Below are positions 7,634 through 18,618 of a DNA stretch of 64,000 nt, one piece after another (position 1 is the stretch's first letter; the number at the start of each line of letters is the position of its first letter). Origin of the DNA: a virus; the IMG/VR virus record IMGVR_UViG_3300024999_000073, positions 18,287 to 82,286 of that record; one strand, given 5' to 3'. Under the pieces are notes generated by a model, which had not been told where the DNA came from, did not search any database, and was given only the letters and a program-made list of their open reading frames with translations. The position numbers were made by a program, and so were the translations under genes.

Positions 7634-8767
7634 ATGAAAGGCTACCCTATGAATAGCAACGCGGTCGTAGAAGCGTTCGGAAGAAGGTCAATCACAGGCA
7701 ATGTGATTCCTATAGAGTGGTTCAAACATCTAAAGATGGATAGTGGTAAGCCGGATGTCAACGGCATGATGATCTTAGCGGACTTGGTTTACTGGTATAG
7801 ACCCATCGAAGTCAGGGATGAAATCACGGGGGAAATATCCTGGCGCAAGAAATTTGCAGGGAAGATTCTACAACGAAATTATCCACAACTTCAAAAGTTT
7901 TTCGGGTTTACTCGCGATCAAATTTACTTTGCCTTACAGCGCCTCAGTAAATTGGGAGTGATAATGGTTTCTCTTGAGAACATTAAAGTCGACGGAAGAT
8001 TTCTTGGAAACGTTATGTATATCGAATTGAACCCCGAAAAGTTTGATGAAATCACTTATCCCCCCCCCTCTTCTAATGCACTAGAAGAGGGGTATGCTAG
8101 TGCATTAGAAGACCCTCTTCTACTCCAGTCGCATACATATACAGAGACTACTGTACAGAGACTCCAGGATACAGAGAATTCTATTAAAGAGCGCCCGCTT
8201 TTTCCAGAAAAAACAGAACCAACAGCGGAAGAAATTCTAGGCGTAGAGGCTAAGCCGGTCCCGCCTCAACGACCTCCGCGTACAGCCGATGAAATCAAAG
8301 CTGAGGTTCGCGCATCCGTTGAGAAATTTCAAGAGCGCAGTAACGGCAAGAGCGCATTAGAATGCCAGGTTCACGATTACAGCCAAACAATACCTGAGAA
8401 CCTTCGCAACTTATTCACCGCCTTCTGCCTGAAATTTGGGCGCTTGCCTCTCAAGAACGAAAAGATTTATTGGATCAATGAGCTGGGAAAGCAGAAGGCA
8501 ATTGGGATCACACCACAGTTGATCGAGGCTGCTTTCGAGCATTGTGATAAAGAGGGCATTTGCATAAAATCGCCAGCCAGTATCACCGCATTTGCAGAGA
8601 ACATAAAACGTGTAAATGTTCACGCTGATACTCCTTACGCTGGTAAAACCGCCGATCAAGTCAAACGAGAGGCTATCATACATTATGGCGGGACATGGTC
8701 TGCGAGCCAACACAGGCTTATTCCTATTGCAGAATTAAAGGCCATGGGTAAGTGGAAAGATGACTGA
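7634..8767 (+). CDS. Phage replication initiator
   Basis: ITGNVIPIEWF...ILADLVYWYRP N-terminal wHTH-type domain; immediately upstream of DnaC-like ATPase; start 7634 or 7649. Confidence 0.7.
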   Translation: MKGYPMNSNAVVEAFGRRSITGNVIPIEWFKHLKMDSGKPDVNGMMILADLVYWYRPIEVRDEITGEISWRKKFAGKILQRNYPQLQKFFGFTRDQIYFALQRLSKLGVIMVSLENIKVDGRFLGNVMYIELNPEKFDEITYPPPSSNALEEGYASALEDPLLLQSHTYTETTVQRLQDTENSIKERPLFPEKTEPTAEEILGVEAKPVPPQRPPRTADEIKAEVRASVEKFQERSNGKSALECQVHDYSQTIPENLRNLFTAFCLKFGRLPLKNEKIYWINELGKQKAIGITPQLIEAAFEHCDKEGICIKSPASITAFAENIKRVNVHADTPYAGKTADQVKREAIIHYGGTWSASQHRLIPIAELKAMGKWKDD

Positions 8768-10618: not shown

Positions 10619-10918
10619 TTGAATCGATATGCAGCTAAAGTTGACGCCAACCAGGCCGAGATCGTTGAAGCTGTCCGAAAGATTGGAGTCAGCGTTCTAC
10701 TCTTGCATACTGTTGGTAAAGGATGTCCCGATAATCTCTGGGGCATAGACATAGACAGTGAATTTAGTGTGAATATTCTGGTGGAAATCAAAACCGAGAA
10801 AGGCAAGTTGACTCCTGACGAGGAGATATTCTTTGATACCTGGCGTGGGCAGGTATGCATTATCAGGAGCGTAGAAGAGGCAGTAGAATTAGTCAATCAG
10901 ATCAGAAATAAGAGGTAA
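10619..10918 (+). CDS. VRR-NUC nuclease
   Basis: AAKVDANQAEIV...GCPD...VEIK...GKLT. Confidence 0.8.
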   Translation: MNRYAAKVDANQAEIVEAVRKIGVSVLLLHTVGKGCPDNLWGIDIDSEFSVNILVEIKTEKGKLTPDEEIFFDTWRGQVCIIRSVEEAVELVNQIRNKR

Positions 10919-11664: not shown

Positions 11665-11949
11665 ATGGCGGAGAAATATAAGTATCATTGTACTCCAGTA
11701 CCAGGAACGTTGTGCAAAGAAGAAGCACAATGGCTGGTTTGGTTCGAGAAATGTGGTAATTTATACACATACATGTGTACTCATCATGCAACGGAAGCGA
11801 TGAAAAACGGTGTGGATGGCTACGCTGTGATTTGTGTTCGCTCTTTTGAAGATGCTGTGTGCCTGTGTATGCCTGACATTGAGAAGGCCATAGAAATATT
11901 CCTGAATTCAGTTGAGAGCGCCGTAGGATTTCAAAAGCATGGACGATAA
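11665..11949 (+). CDS. Hypothetical Cys-rich protein
   Basis: GAGG RBS; overlaps the methyltransferase start. Confidence 0.45.
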   Translation: MAEKYKYHCTPVPGTLCKEEAQWLVWFEKCGNLYTYMCTHHATEAMKNGVDGYAVICVRSFEDAVCLCMPDIEKAIEIFLNSVESAVGFQKHGR

Positions 11950-14560
11950 AATCTTGCAAGACTTTTTAGAGCAATTCAAAGCCGAGGATTGGTATGGCCT
12001 ATATCATGGAGGCTGGAAGAACGAAGTAATACCGGCGTCTCAAAGCCATCCCGCGAAATTCAGCCGTCGCTTGATTCGTCGTATCTACGAACATGCCTTT
12101 GCGGAAGGCTGGTTGAAAAAAGGATTGCGAGTGCTGGATATTTTCGGAGGCGTCGCACTTGGAAGTTTGGACGCCATGCAGATGGGATTGAATTGGGTGG
12201 GCGTAGAGATAGAGCCGCGCTGGGTTGCATGTGGGATGGGCGGCCATTGCGACGGCCAACCCATCGTAGTTGAGGCCAAACCTGGGATTCGAGGTTGGTA
12301 TGTGGTGTACAGAGATGGCGAGAACGGAAACTTCAGCGAGTTCTACATCGGAGTAAACGGAGAACCCAGTCAAGACGAGCCGGATGGCGAGGGTTTCAAG
12401 TCACGCAAAATCGCGCTTGCATTTGCGCATGAACTTGACATGGACGGCCTGGAGCTACGCAAGGTCAGGGAGGGTCAGACTTTCGCCAAAGCCTCTTTAT
12501 GTGGGAACAAAGAAAAGCACGAAGCGCACGAGATCAAAGGCAATATCCAGCTTTGGAACGATAAATATGCGGGAATGCCACATTGGGGAACTGCGGTCTT
12601 ATTGAAAGGCGACTCTCGCAAGCTCAGGAAAGTATTGGCCGAGAATGGGCATCTAGGGAGCCAGGACATGAGCGCGAGTAGCCCTCCATTCCAGGAGACT
12701 AATGCCGATGGAGGCTGGCAAATGTTGGGAAAGTACGCCCGCCAGGGCCGCTTGACGGTAGACCAGGTGAAAGGTAAATCGGACAAATCCTACCCTTCTT
12801 GGGAAGAAAGCAGAGATACAGGCCCCGGAGACGCAGCCGAGAACCTGTCAAATTTTGACAACGGCGATTACCAGGCGATAGTTAGCTCACCCCCTTATGC
12901 TGAGACCGGATTGCGCAACATTGACGACAAGGCGGAGATAATCAATCAAGGACGTAGAGAGCGCGGGGAAGTGCAAGGTGGGACGGGCAGAAGCGGGGTG
13001 TTAGGGCAATCGCTGATACAGGGAGACGGGTATGGATTGGCGCCCGAAAATCTAGGCAATCTACAGCCCGATGGCTTCGATGCCTGTCTTGCGTCACCTC
13101 CATACGCCCAGGCCAGGATAGAAGGGCAAGGCGACGAGGGAGCGTCGGGGTTACGCAACGAAGACGGAAGTTTTGTACGTGGGTCTGAGGGCTGGCAGAA
13201 GCGAGTAGAACTTGGCGACCGCTACGGCGAAACCCCCGGCCAACTTGGAAGTCTAGAAGCTGAGCATTTTGATTTTGAGGTAGGGAGTCCGCCATTCATA
13301 GCGCAGGGTGGGGGTGGGAATGTTACATCCACAGGAGGCCCATTAGCAGATGCAAGTATGATAAAGCGACATGGGGCAGGAAATTCTGCATCGATGGCTT
13401 ATGGGGAGGACTCAGCTAACCTGGCGGCGATGGATGGCGAGGGCTTTGATGATGCTGTGGAGAAATCTTGCGAACATTCGCAGGATAATGGGCAGCCGGA
13501 TTTAGCCCTTAGCTCTCCACCCTATGTTTCCGGTGGGCATCACCCAGATCAAACCGGGGCTTGGGGAGGGCGACTCAACGTTATTGATGAGAGCGAGGCT
13601 AGTTACGGCAAACAGATCGGGCAAATGGGGCAAATGGATGTTAAGGACTTTGATTTAGCCGCAGCCAGTCCGCCATTTAGTGAGAGTTTGAGCGGGGATA
13701 GGGTGATACCTGAAATAAGAGTAGCCAGAGCACGAGCAATGGGTCTTATAAGCGCGGCGGATGTATCCCCCATTGATTCAGAGAAATTTGGGGAACGTTC
13801 GCAAGAAATAGGCGGGGAGGCAGCCCAGCTTTCTCATATGGCAAATACCGAAGCAGATTTCGACCTCTCCGCGACTTCTCCTCCATACGCGGACTCGGTG
13901 AACTCTGAGAAATCGGGGATAGATTTCAGCAAAGGCCAGTTGGATTATCCGGGCCGGAAACTACACGAATCACGTATTACCATGCAAAAGCGGCACCACA
14001 ACGACCGCAATTATGGACAAGAGCCGGGCCAGCTTGGAGCTATGGAAGACAAAGCATTCGAGGGTTCGGTGTCAAGTCCTCCATTCGAGGCCAGCACCGG
14101 CGACCGTCCTAGTGCGAGCATACGCGCTACTTTCGATAGAGGCGAAACCGTGTTCGGGCCAGCGATGTTGAACGACAGCGGGTATGGTGCAGATAGTGGC
14201 AACATCGGTAATGACAGCGGCATGGACTTCTGGTCGGCGTCCAAGCAGATACTCCAGGAGCTTTTTTCCGTACTTCGTCCTGGGGCAAAAGCCATCTTCG
14301 TTTTAAAGCGATATATCAAGGATTCCAAGATTGTTCAGTTCCCGGCGCAATGGGCCTATCTAGCTGCTACAGTTGGGTTTATACCCCTGCATTGGCACAA
14401 GTGCTGGATGATCGAAGACAGAGGCACACAATATGACCTATTCGGCGGCAAAATAGAGAAGATCACAGCCAGGTACTCATTCTTCCGCAGACTGCACGCC
14501 AAGAAATACCCGCACCTGGAAATTCAATACGAAGATGTGATTTGTTTTCTTAGACCGTAG
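11939..14560 (+). CDS. DNA amino-methyltransferase (N4C/N6A type) with eight repeated SPP(Y/F) modules
   Basis: HPAKF, motif I LDIFGGV, GVEIE, GDSR, 8x SPPY/F, C-terminal VLRPGAKAIFVLK. Confidence 0.75.
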   Translation: MDDKILQDFLEQFKAEDWYGLYHGGWKNEVIPASQSHPAKFSRRLIRRIYEHAFAEGWLKKGLRVLDIFGGVALGSLDAMQMGLNWVGVEIEPRWVACGMGGHCDGQPIVVEAKPGIRGWYVVYRDGENGNFSEFYIGVNGEPSQDEPDGEGFKSRKIALAFAHELDMDGLELRKVREGQTFAKASLCGNKEKHEAHEIKGNIQLWNDKYAGMPHWGTAVLLKGDSRKLRKVLAENGHLGSQDMSASSPPFQETNADGGWQMLGKYARQGRLTVDQVKGKSDKSYPSWEESRDTGPGDAAENLSNFDNGDYQAIVSSPPYAETGLRNIDDKAEIINQGRRERGEVQGGTGRSGVLGQSLIQGDGYGLAPENLGNLQPDGFDACLASPPYAQARIEGQGDEGASGLRNEDGSFVRGSEGWQKRVELGDRYGETPGQLGSLEAEHFDFEVGSPPFIAQGGGGNVTSTGGPLADASMIKRHGAGNSASMAYGEDSANLAAMDGEGFDDAVEKSCEHSQDNGQPDLALSSPPYVSGGHHPDQTGAWGGRLNVIDESEASYGKQIGQMGQMDVKDFDLAAASPPFSESLSGDRVIPEIRVARARAMGLISAADVSPIDSEKFGERSQEIGGEAAQLSHMANTEADFDLSATSPPYADSVNSEKSGIDFSKGQLDYPGRKLHESRITMQKRHHNDRNYGQEPGQLGAMEDKAFEGSVSSPPFEASTGDRPSASIRATFDRGETVFGPAMLNDSGYGADSGNIGNDSGMDFWSASKQILQELFSVLRPGAKAIFVLKRYIKDSKIVQFPAQWAYLAATVGFIPLHWHKCWMIEDRGTQYDLFGGKIEKITARYSFFRRLHAKKYPHLEIQYEDVICFLRP

Positions 14561-14627: not shown

Positions 14628-14873
14628 ATGAGATACAAACTGACTGATGAAATCCGACAGAGTATTGAACCAATTATGTGGGGGAAACGTGCGCTAAAGA
14701 ACCTTGACGGAGAATACATAGACCTATGTGTAGATTGTTACTTCGATGCTGGCTTTGACGATGAACACGGCGATCATCCCGATCTCATCACAGGCGAGGC
14801 TATCTACAATCCGCGCAATGACCATTGTGCGGTATGTGGGAAGCCGCTTTTTGAGATAGACAATAGTGACTAG
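14628..14873 (+). CDS. Small Cys-containing protein
   Basis: CVDC...CAVC; ends EIDNSD like the next gene. Confidence 0.5.
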   Translation: MRYKLTDEIRQSIEPIMWGKRALKNLDGEYIDLCVDCYFDAGFDDEHGDHPDLITGEAIYNPRNDHCAVCGKPLFEIDNSD

Positions 14874-14901: not shown

Positions 14902-15168
14902 ATGACTGACAATATAATGTTGATTGATATAATGGACGCTCATTACTATAGGAATACCGACCGATTCTGCCCAAGCTGTGGAGACAAGACAGTTATAGTC
15001 CTCCCAGAGATTCAGGAAGAAAATGCGGGCGATCAATATTTGTGCTATTCTTGTAGGTTTGGTGCTTTTGGTATTGGTTCTGATTATTCTGATTTAAATG
15101 ATGGCGAAAAGGAATCTATCATTGTTCAAGTGACAAAACGGCTTATAGAATTCGACAATAGCGACTAG
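14902..15168 (+). CDS. Small Zn-ribbon protein
   Basis: CPSCG...CYSC. Confidence 0.5.
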   Translation: MTDNIMLIDIMDAHYYRNTDRFCPSCGDKTVIVLPEIQEENAGDQYLCYSCRFGAFGIGSDYSDLNDGEKESIIVQVTKRLIEFDNSD

Positions 15169-18021: not shown

Positions 18022-18618
18022 TTACTCCATCAACCGGGCCACAGCCACTTCTGCGTAGTCTTTCTTGAGATGCCAGGCCAGGTTTTCCTGTGCATCATCC
18101 ATGAGACCGCTTTTCTGGTTATCGCTCCCGTAGTAACCCCAGCAGGAGTCCACAGACTCGCCGTTCTTATCCAGCAAGTCGTAACCGAACACATATCCGT
18201 TGACGTAATTCCCATAGACCGCGACATCAGCCTCCAGGCAGCCGATGGCACGTCTGCGTGTTTTTGCGCTGATGATCTTGCAACTGTACTCCTTCAAGAC
18301 TTCTTCGCGTTCCACGAAAATCACACCGACTTGCCCGCTGTCCCACGGATCCCTAAAGCCTGTTGTATTCAGAGCAATGCCAGAATGCTCGTACATATAC
18401 ACAGGCAGCCATATAGCGCCAGTGTCTTTGATATGCTCCATCACTTTATCTGCATTGCGAAAGTGGTGCTTATCCCCCAAGTCATAGCGGCTATGGAAAC
18501 AGACCAGAGTACCCAGGTTATCCCACTCCTCGCGTGGGTTGACCGGATTATCGTCCGTGTACACCTTGAGAATGTAACCGGACCCCATTTCAATCGTTTC
18601 GACCAAATTCTCGTCCAT
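18022..18618 (-). CDS. Conserved mobile-element hypothetical protein
   Basis: NPREEWDNLG, LPVYMYEHSG, WDSGQVG, SCWGYYG motifs; AAGGAGTCT RBS. Confidence 0.65.
   Translation of the reverse strand: MDENLVETIEMGSGYILKVYTDDNPVNPREEWDNLGTLVCFHSRYDLGDKHHFRNADKVMEHIKDTGAIWLPVYMYEHSGIALNTTGFRDPWDSGQVGVIFVEREEVLKEYSCKIISAKTRRRAIGCLEADVAVYGNYVNGYVFGYDLLDKNGESVDSCWGYYGSDNQKSGLMDDAQENLAWHLKKDYAEVAVARLME

Follow-up and report, generated by a model that had tools for sequence, protein, structure and literature searches.

A phage gene with eight tandem motif-IV cassettes: a candidate DNA amino-methyltransferase of a permuted beta class

An open reading frame (ORF) on the plus strand of a 64,000-nucleotide (nt) stretch of viral DNA (positions 18,287 to 82,286 of the IMG/VR virus record IMGVR_UViG_3300024999_000073; the whole stretch is called the window below, and all nt positions refer to it) stays open from position 11939 to 14560 and encodes 873 amino acids (aa) followed by a stop codon. 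The product is a circularly permuted amino-methyltransferase in which the catalytic motif IV recurs in eight tandem cassettes, and an identical protein (P0002) is present in the public protein collection. We consider it, with a probability of roughly 0.4, to be an orphan phage DNA amino-methyltransferase of a permuted beta class whose specificity is set cassette by cassette. Serine in motif IV is a hallmark of enzymes that modify the N4 atom of cytosine, and the SPP[YF] form of the motif suggests this atom as the target.

The tetrapeptide SPP[YF] occurs at aa 248, 317, 386, 450, 526, 577, 647 and 713, with spacings of 69, 69, 64, 76, 51, 70 and 66 aa. These correspond to nt 12680, 12887, 13094, 13286, 13514, 13667, 13877 and 14075, exactly the positions listed in the original prediction, which had been made from the letters alone. 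The composition of the protein leads to an expected 0.012 occurrences, and the maximum in 20,000 shuffles was one, versus the eight observed. The remainder of the enzyme is present once. The S-adenosylmethionine (SAM)-binding region, with HPAKF at aa 37–41 and LDIFGGV at aa 66–72, coincides with a single PF01555 match (aa 35–94) and there is a single C-terminal core (aa 757–873), in agreement with the proposal of one SAM-binding region and one C-terminal strand set. Each unit follows the pattern (F)D-x3-S-SPP[YF], a variable loop, and an anchor YGxxxG(Q/N)LGxM. The earlier description of this pattern, of units 51–76 aa apart and of loops that all differ was thus correct, with the qualification that the anchor is degenerate in units 1 and 6; the strand of unit 1 is also weak. 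Seven of the eight loops represent seven distinct family-wide types, and one is unclassified.

Cassette 1 (aa 238–306; nt 12650–12856) contains SPPF, a loop of type F, a weak beta4 strand (DMSAS) and the first of the two degenerate anchors. It is followed by cassette 2 (aa 307–375; nt 12857–13063), with SPPY and the unclassified loop, which is of a rare type, and by cassette 3 (aa 376–439; nt 13064–13255), with SPPY and a loop of type R. SPPF in cassette 4 (aa 440–515; nt 13256–13483) precedes a loop of type A (GGxNVT...RHxAGN), the commonest in the family, and cassette 5 (aa 516–566; nt 13484–13636), with SPPY and type S, is the shortest unit. Cassettes 6 (aa 567–636; nt 13637–13846; SPPF, type D) and 7 (aa 637–702; nt 13847–14044; SPPY, type E) lead to cassette 8 (aa 703–756; nt 14045–14206), which reads SPPFE and has a loop of type V, a type of the terminal position; its anchor, YGADSGNIGND, runs into the core helix.

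At the DNA level the units share just the 14–16 nt that encode SPPY, and neither TRF nor a repeat finder returned a longer repeat; the array is therefore an old protein-level repeat and not a recent DNA repeat. The gene was identical, with no joints or indels, in contigs of four runs from three studies, a comparison of contigs at low depth in which rare variants could escape. Recombination between repeats, which had been put forward as a possible switch of specificity, is not supported in view of both observations (no DNA repeat >16 nt, one version of the gene in all four runs), and on the same grounds we rejected a recent tandem repeat or phase variation.

On sequence comparison, the repeated unit is a contiguous element composed of strand beta4, motif IV, the post-motif-IV loop and the segment leading into helix D. 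A search of the PDB found one copy of the equivalent element, '...VHLVVTSPPYW..RYEDTPGQLGHIED', in TTHA0409 (PDB 2zie), an ordinary beta-class SPPY enzyme. A single motif IV, which the original prediction regarded as normal, is indeed what such ordinary beta-class enzymes have, but many copies are not peculiar to this gene and are the norm in its viral family. The family profile matched TTHA0409 with an E value of 3e-10 in three permuted segments (profile positions 6–92, 106–139 and 277–322 with residues 194–275, 18–53 and 54–100, respectively), and further matches were CcrM (9e-6), M.PvuII (6e-5) and the rotifer enzyme N4CMT (2e-4). RNA methyltransferases in the PDB reached only E>=0.02 (0.02–0.09). 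The N-terminus of the protein aligns to the C-termini of TTHA0409, CcrM and M.PvuII, and vice versa, so that the motif order is X-I-II-III-IV(n)-V...VIII, unlike the class-defining beta order IV...VIII-TRD-X-I-II-III, where TRD is the target-recognition domain. The protein is thus circularly permuted relative to the beta class, its SAM half coming first. In Pfam, aa 35–94 of the protein (P0001 in our set) correspond to positions 160–214 of the 221 of PF01555 (N6_N4_Mtase), and the homologues P0003 (37.4 bits), P0163 (47.1), P0328 (31.5) and P0204 (28.5) lie above the threshold of that family. The PADLOC matches are to Type II DNA methyltransferase models. No match to the C5-cytosine methyltransferase core (PCQ, ENV; PF00145) was found in Pfam, the core being of the amino-methyltransferase type, and the protein matches no NCBIfam family.

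The likeness to TTHA0409, M.PvuII, CcrM and N4CMT extends to motifs X, I and II (HPAxF...DPFGG...GxELE) and to SPP[YF] on strand beta4, followed by 'Y(G)xxxGQ(L/I)G', helix D and strand beta5. The differences are that the motif-IV element is single in those enzymes and present eight times here (1–12 times in the family), that they possess a separate TRD whereas this protein has none, and that the loops of this family span 20–55 aa, compared with about 4–17 aa in TTHA0409 and N4CMT. The consensus of motif IV is D/N/S-P-P-Y/F/W (PMC7544214). In solved beta-class enzymes the loop directly after motif IV serves to recognise DNA: that of N4CMT has no ordered structure in the absence of DNA, and CcrM reads the DNA sequence with its equivalent loops (PMC10406627).

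The family to which the gene belongs is large. A word-index search found 446 relatives comparable in length and 1040 that are shorter, and the C-terminal core as query retrieved 787 clusters at E<=1e-10 from 1.84 billion cluster representatives; overall, the family comprises about 800 clusters, nearly all of them viral. Relatives are encoded at 72 viral loci in IMG/VR and on six contigs among 185,579 species genomes, all of which are metagenome-assembled genomes, and a tblastn search of 50,697 phage records gave no match in cultured phages. The atlas clusters nearest to the two-unit homologue P0204 (368 aa) are 76–100% viral. Repeat number across homologues, proposed earlier as a comparison to make, has a median of four units and a range of 1–12. 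In a sample collected with the C-terminal core only, so that unit number could not bias it, the 61 complete proteins contained one unit (2 proteins), two (1), three (14), four (17), five (12), six (7), seven (6), eight (1) or ten (1), so multi-unit proteins are the norm, with at least three units in 58 of the 61. Protein length is accounted for by a core of about 273 aa plus about 55 aa per unit. Where the sources name the homologues, the name is almost always 'hypothetical protein', and our full-text literature searches found no paper on methyltransferases with tandem or multiple motif IV; to our knowledge, this large viral methyltransferase family with a multiplied motif IV is undescribed.

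The behaviour of the cassettes across the family was examined with 903 loops cut from 209 complete proteins and clustered into types, which yielded at least 30 conserved loop types. A type occurs twice within one protein in 10 of the 209 proteins, versus 43.4 +/- 4.7 expected from 1000 shuffles, none of which fell below 31. The same types occupy different positions: type A was found as first, internal and last unit 9, 87 and 15 times, type D 6, 18 and 16 times, and type E 11, 19 and 7 times, and type R, internal in the present protein, is terminal in P0204. There are 196 distinct architectures among the 209 proteins, and shared types come in a nearly random order (54–61% concordant) once core identity drops below 70%. 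The Jaccard index of the type sets is 0.39 at >=80% core identity and falls to about 0.1 below 60%, so loop types are replaced more quickly than the core changes. For 13% of the pairs of loops of one type, the identity between the loops exceeds that between the cores carrying them by over 20 points (up to 92% vs 47%), an indication that cassettes are exchanged between lineages. Throughout this shuffling the catalytic motif is kept: 98% of first units have a canonical motif IV, as do about 93% of internal and 94% of last ones, and the pattern 'M[KP]xG[GD]FDAA[IV]SSPP[YF]' is retained in internal and last units. Its aromatic residue is type-specific with 94% purity (SPPF in 107 of 111 loops of type A, SPPY in 41 of 41 of type C). 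Taken together, the family-wide pattern supports independent, non-redundant, order-free specificity cassettes, as a multispecific enzyme predicts.

About 5–7% of the non-first units have a degenerate motif IV. Changes of one residue were seen in some cassettes of P0005, P0007, P0009 and P0042 (SPAY, SSPF, SHPY and SPPA), and some copies of a loop type that reads 'QSGGTxGLKEHGTGL' contain SPAY. A minority of cassettes may be losing catalytic competence.

We infer that the enzyme methylates DNA, that each cassette confers one specificity and that docking of the cassettes is mutually exclusive. In such an enzyme, which lacks a separate TRD, the specificity element would be the loop directly after motif IV. 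This loop would be anchored in the active site at both ends and could be exchanged only together with beta4 and SPP[YF], and it is for this reason that the whole element, catalytic motif included, would have been multiplied into cassette arrays. In the most likely mode of use, the one beta4 slot next to the SAM site would be filled by a single cassette at a time, either chosen once at folding or slowly exchanged. Topologically any unit could fill the slot; the units ahead of it would then hang off the sheet's lower edge and those behind it off the upper one. The population of enzyme molecules would then methylate several sequences, and the phage genome would be protected from several host restriction systems. 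The most far-reaching form of this proposal, in which up to a dozen copies of a beta-strand compete for one Rossmann slot, one polypeptide acquires several DNA specificities and phages reshuffle the cassettes to track host restriction, is put forward tentatively, as possible but doubtful.

Several observations weigh against cassette-by-cassette specificity, among them the results of structure prediction. Such prediction, suggested earlier as a check, did not support the view that the units are equivalent. In an AlphaFold2 (AF2) model of the full protein, built on a 120-sequence alignment, both halves of the core had a predicted local distance difference test (pLDDT) score >90 (aa 1–240, including a beta-rich insert, and aa 760–873). 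The whole array from aa 242 to 750 scored <50 except for two loop helices near 70, and no copy of beta4 was confidently docked. In the model of P0204 (mean pLDDT 81), unit 1 was docked, its beta4 strand (residues 134–139) at 86 and its anchor at 73–82, and unit 2, whose loop is of type R like that of cassette 3 here, remained <50. These models are the chief argument against equivalent units, although AF2 may prefer the first unit because the alignment is deeper close to the core. The positions also differ in sequence: a Glu follows SPP[YF] in 65% of last units, and the single-unit member P0328 likewise reads SPPYE, so the positions are not fully equivalent. The array has a net charge of -38 in this protein, odd for elements that contact DNA, and its loops abound in Gly, Ser and Pro; across the family the loops are mildly acidic, at -2.4 per 100 aa. 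The PF01555 score of the protein, 21.1 bits, is under the gathering threshold of 26.7, and the best structural neighbours of a homologue model are the N2-methylguanosine (m2G) RNA methyltransferases Trm14/TrmN, Trm11 and RsmD (Z 17–20). Lastly, beta4 is a central strand of the Rossmann sheet, its exchange needs partial unfolding, and we know of no natural precedent for such an exchange. The idea that swapping cassettes may make the enzyme multispecific was partly supported, namely by the nature of the unit (beta4 plus a DNA-reading loop), the independent, order-free loop types and the restriction pressure described below, but docking onto the core was confidently predicted for no unit here and for unit 1 only in P0204.

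A rival reading is that only the first cassette is catalytic and that the rest form a long, flexible accessory region separating the active site from helix D and serving as a composite DNA-binding or recognition element, as a lid or regulator, or as tentacles that hold DNA or partner proteins. The first cassette is contiguous with helix C, as AF2 models it, co-translational folding would favour the first beta4, motif IV is most conserved in first units, and the array, besides being predicted to be disordered and rich in Gly, Ser and Pro, has a hydrophobicity of 15%, compared with 32% in the cores. We regard this as a serious alternative, yet on balance an unlikely one: it leaves the conservation of beta4 and SPP[YF] in the undocked units and their type-specific aromatic residue unexplained, a composite reader should need a fixed order, but the order is scrambled, one and the same loop type can be found in first, internal or last position, and the docking in P0204 may be a matter of alignment depth only. 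The structural neighbours raise a further issue, namely that the enzyme might not modify DNA and that its cassettes would choose among RNA substrates (e.g., m2G in tRNA or rRNA) or other amino-group substrates. VIA-align superimposed about 176 residues of the homologue model on Trm14, Trm11 and RsmD with a root-mean-square deviation of 2.0–2.7, the fold and the order of motif I before motif IV agreeing; in the atlas clusters nearest P0204, some members have PF01170 and PF03602, and one homologue in the JGI data is named 'tRNA G10 N-methylase Trm11'. The structural ranking is, however, explained by that shared linear motif order, which a sequential aligner favours, and PF01170, present on 17–92% of the members of the atlas clusters, is presumably an overlapping weak match. 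Trm14/TrmN, Trm11 and RsmD share with the present protein the Rossmann fold with motif I before IV, but they have a D/NPP[YF] motif in a single copy together with THUMP or other RNA-binding domains. Neither P0001 nor four homologues matched THUMP, PF01170 or PF03602, and P0001 has no other RNA-binding domain. Given that sequence homology and the PADLOC models lead to DNA enzymes, that the motif-IV serine is the one expected for N4-cytosine and that the family is viral with the gene in a replication module, an RNA substrate seems improbable to us. A Foldseek search with the full model returned only weak Rossmann matches (E about 0.02), a comparison compromised by the permutation and by the disorder of the array.

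A role of the array apart from catalysis, either as a disordered acidic region for display or as a decoy (such as a mimic of DNA or a protein that binds host defence factors) or as an extended beta4 solenoid, would accord with its charge, its predicted disorder and the rapid turnover of cassettes, which is typical of conflict interfaces. We judge it very unlikely, since the loops are just mildly acidic across the family and a decoy needs no catalytic tetrapeptide, beta4 pattern and active-site anchor in every unit; an extended sheet of all beta4 strands was also rejected, as it would separate motif IV from motifs V–VIII and is not predicted by AF2. Self-methylation of the anchor Gln/Asn, by comparison with the GGQ substrate of PrmC, was likewise set aside, the GQ(L/I)G segment being present once in the ordinary DNA methyltransferases TTHA0409 and N4CMT.

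The original prediction drew a parallel to the multi-TRD C5-cytosine methyltransferases of Bacillus phages. Multispecific enzymes of this kind come from the phages SPR, phi3T, rho11s and H2 (Walter et al., 1992; Trautner et al., 1996; both cited in PMC7544214). In the SPR/phi3T type, a single phage enzyme with one catalytic core bears several tandem, exchangeable specificity modules, and its presumed role, protection against several host restriction systems, is the one proposed here. There the chemistry is C5, with PCQ and ENV motifs, and the modules are for recognition only, lying between motifs VIII and IX and using one common catalytic loop; in the present protein each module has its own catalytic strand and tetrapeptide, which creates the problem of one slot and many strands. 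If each cassette has its own target, the enzyme would be the amino-methyltransferase counterpart of the multispecific 5-methylcytosine enzymes, though it would rest on another principle.

Engineered 'alternate frame folding' proteins contain a duplicated segment that competes for one place in the fold. They resemble our proposal in that the copies of a segment are usable only one at a time; they are laboratory constructs with two frames, whereas this is a natural family with up to 12 segments for which competition is only proposed. A multiplied catalytic strand poses an unusual folding problem, and if alternative strand docking is true, the mechanism would be new. Should each cassette have its own target, the family would also offer a catalogue of at least 30 short specificity loops (30–60 aa) with targets readable from methylomes, a help both in studying DNA recognition by beta-class enzymes and in methyltransferase engineering. 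It would likewise account for the way in which environmental phages whose host range is broad or shifting cope with many restriction systems by means of one small gene. Even with a single catalytic cassette, a new explanation would be needed for why hundreds of seemingly unused motifs are so strictly conserved.

Strong avoidance of palindromic hexamers in the window (1–64000) indicates that restriction is a major pressure on this phage. Of the palindromic hexamers, 28% have an observed/expected ratio below 0.2, versus 0.15% of other hexamers (p 4e-14); examples are CTCGAG (0 vs 14.2 expected), TGATCA (1 vs 30.4) and AAGCTT (2 vs 18.9). About 20 hexamer palindromes, including GGATCC, CCGCGG, TCGCGA and GAATTC, are not avoided, and 4-bp palindromes are mildly low only. 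When loop types were compared with the avoidance of 4-bp palindromes at 19 usable loci, one nominal match was obtained, type A with TTAA, which is probably confounded by composition or phylogeny.

Outside the array, part 1 of the N-terminal core (aa 1–97; nt 11939–12229; pLDDT >90), which aligns with TTHA0409 residues 192–271 and includes the Pfam match, comprises motif X, HPAKF (nt 12047–12061), and motif I, LDIFGGV (nt 12134–12154), followed by motif II, VGVEIE; motifs X, I and II make up the only SAM-binding site of the protein. An inserted beta-rich domain (aa 98–200; nt 12230–12538; pLDDT 78–96), absent from the family consensus, sits in this SAM-binding half and carries Cys/His pairs (GGHC ... 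CGNKEKHEAH); it had no match in Pfam, and its structural neighbours in the atlas were all at a TM-score <0.5. Part 2 of the N-terminal core (aa 201–237; nt 12539–12649) contains the helix NIQLWN, the strand AVLLKGD and the helix SRKLRKVL, aligns with TTHA0409 residues 17–55 and, judged from this alignment, corresponds to the N-terminal 'GD' segment that precedes motif IV in beta-class enzymes. Beyond the array, the C-terminal core (nt 14207–14557; pLDDT >90) consists of the helix FWSASKQILQELF, the strand AKAIFVL, further strands (motifs V–VIII) and SFFRRL...ICF, and aligns with TTHA0409 residues 54–100.

The genome of this uncultivated groundwater phage is an 82,286-bp IMG/VR record, about 95% complete, in which no other PF01555 gene was found, and the runs that contain the gene are groundwater and soil metagenomes, with no RNA run listed among them. 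Upstream, a 99-aa ORF at 10619–10918 matches endonuclease and Holliday-junction-resolvase PHROGs, and a 276-aa ORF at 8760–9590 matches DnaC-like helicase loaders; with these neighbours we place the methyltransferase in a replication or early module. Just downstream lie two adjacent small ORFs, at 14628–14873 (81 aa) and 14902–15168 (88 aa), which both have CxxC pairs and end in nearly identical C-terminal tails (...LFEIDNSD and ...LIEFDNSD), and which resemble a pair of paralogues of zinc-ribbon type. A separate contig of 218 nt in run X8 matches just the motif-I region (12143–12179) with five differences and has unrelated flanks, and probably represents a second, related methyltransferase gene in that sample.

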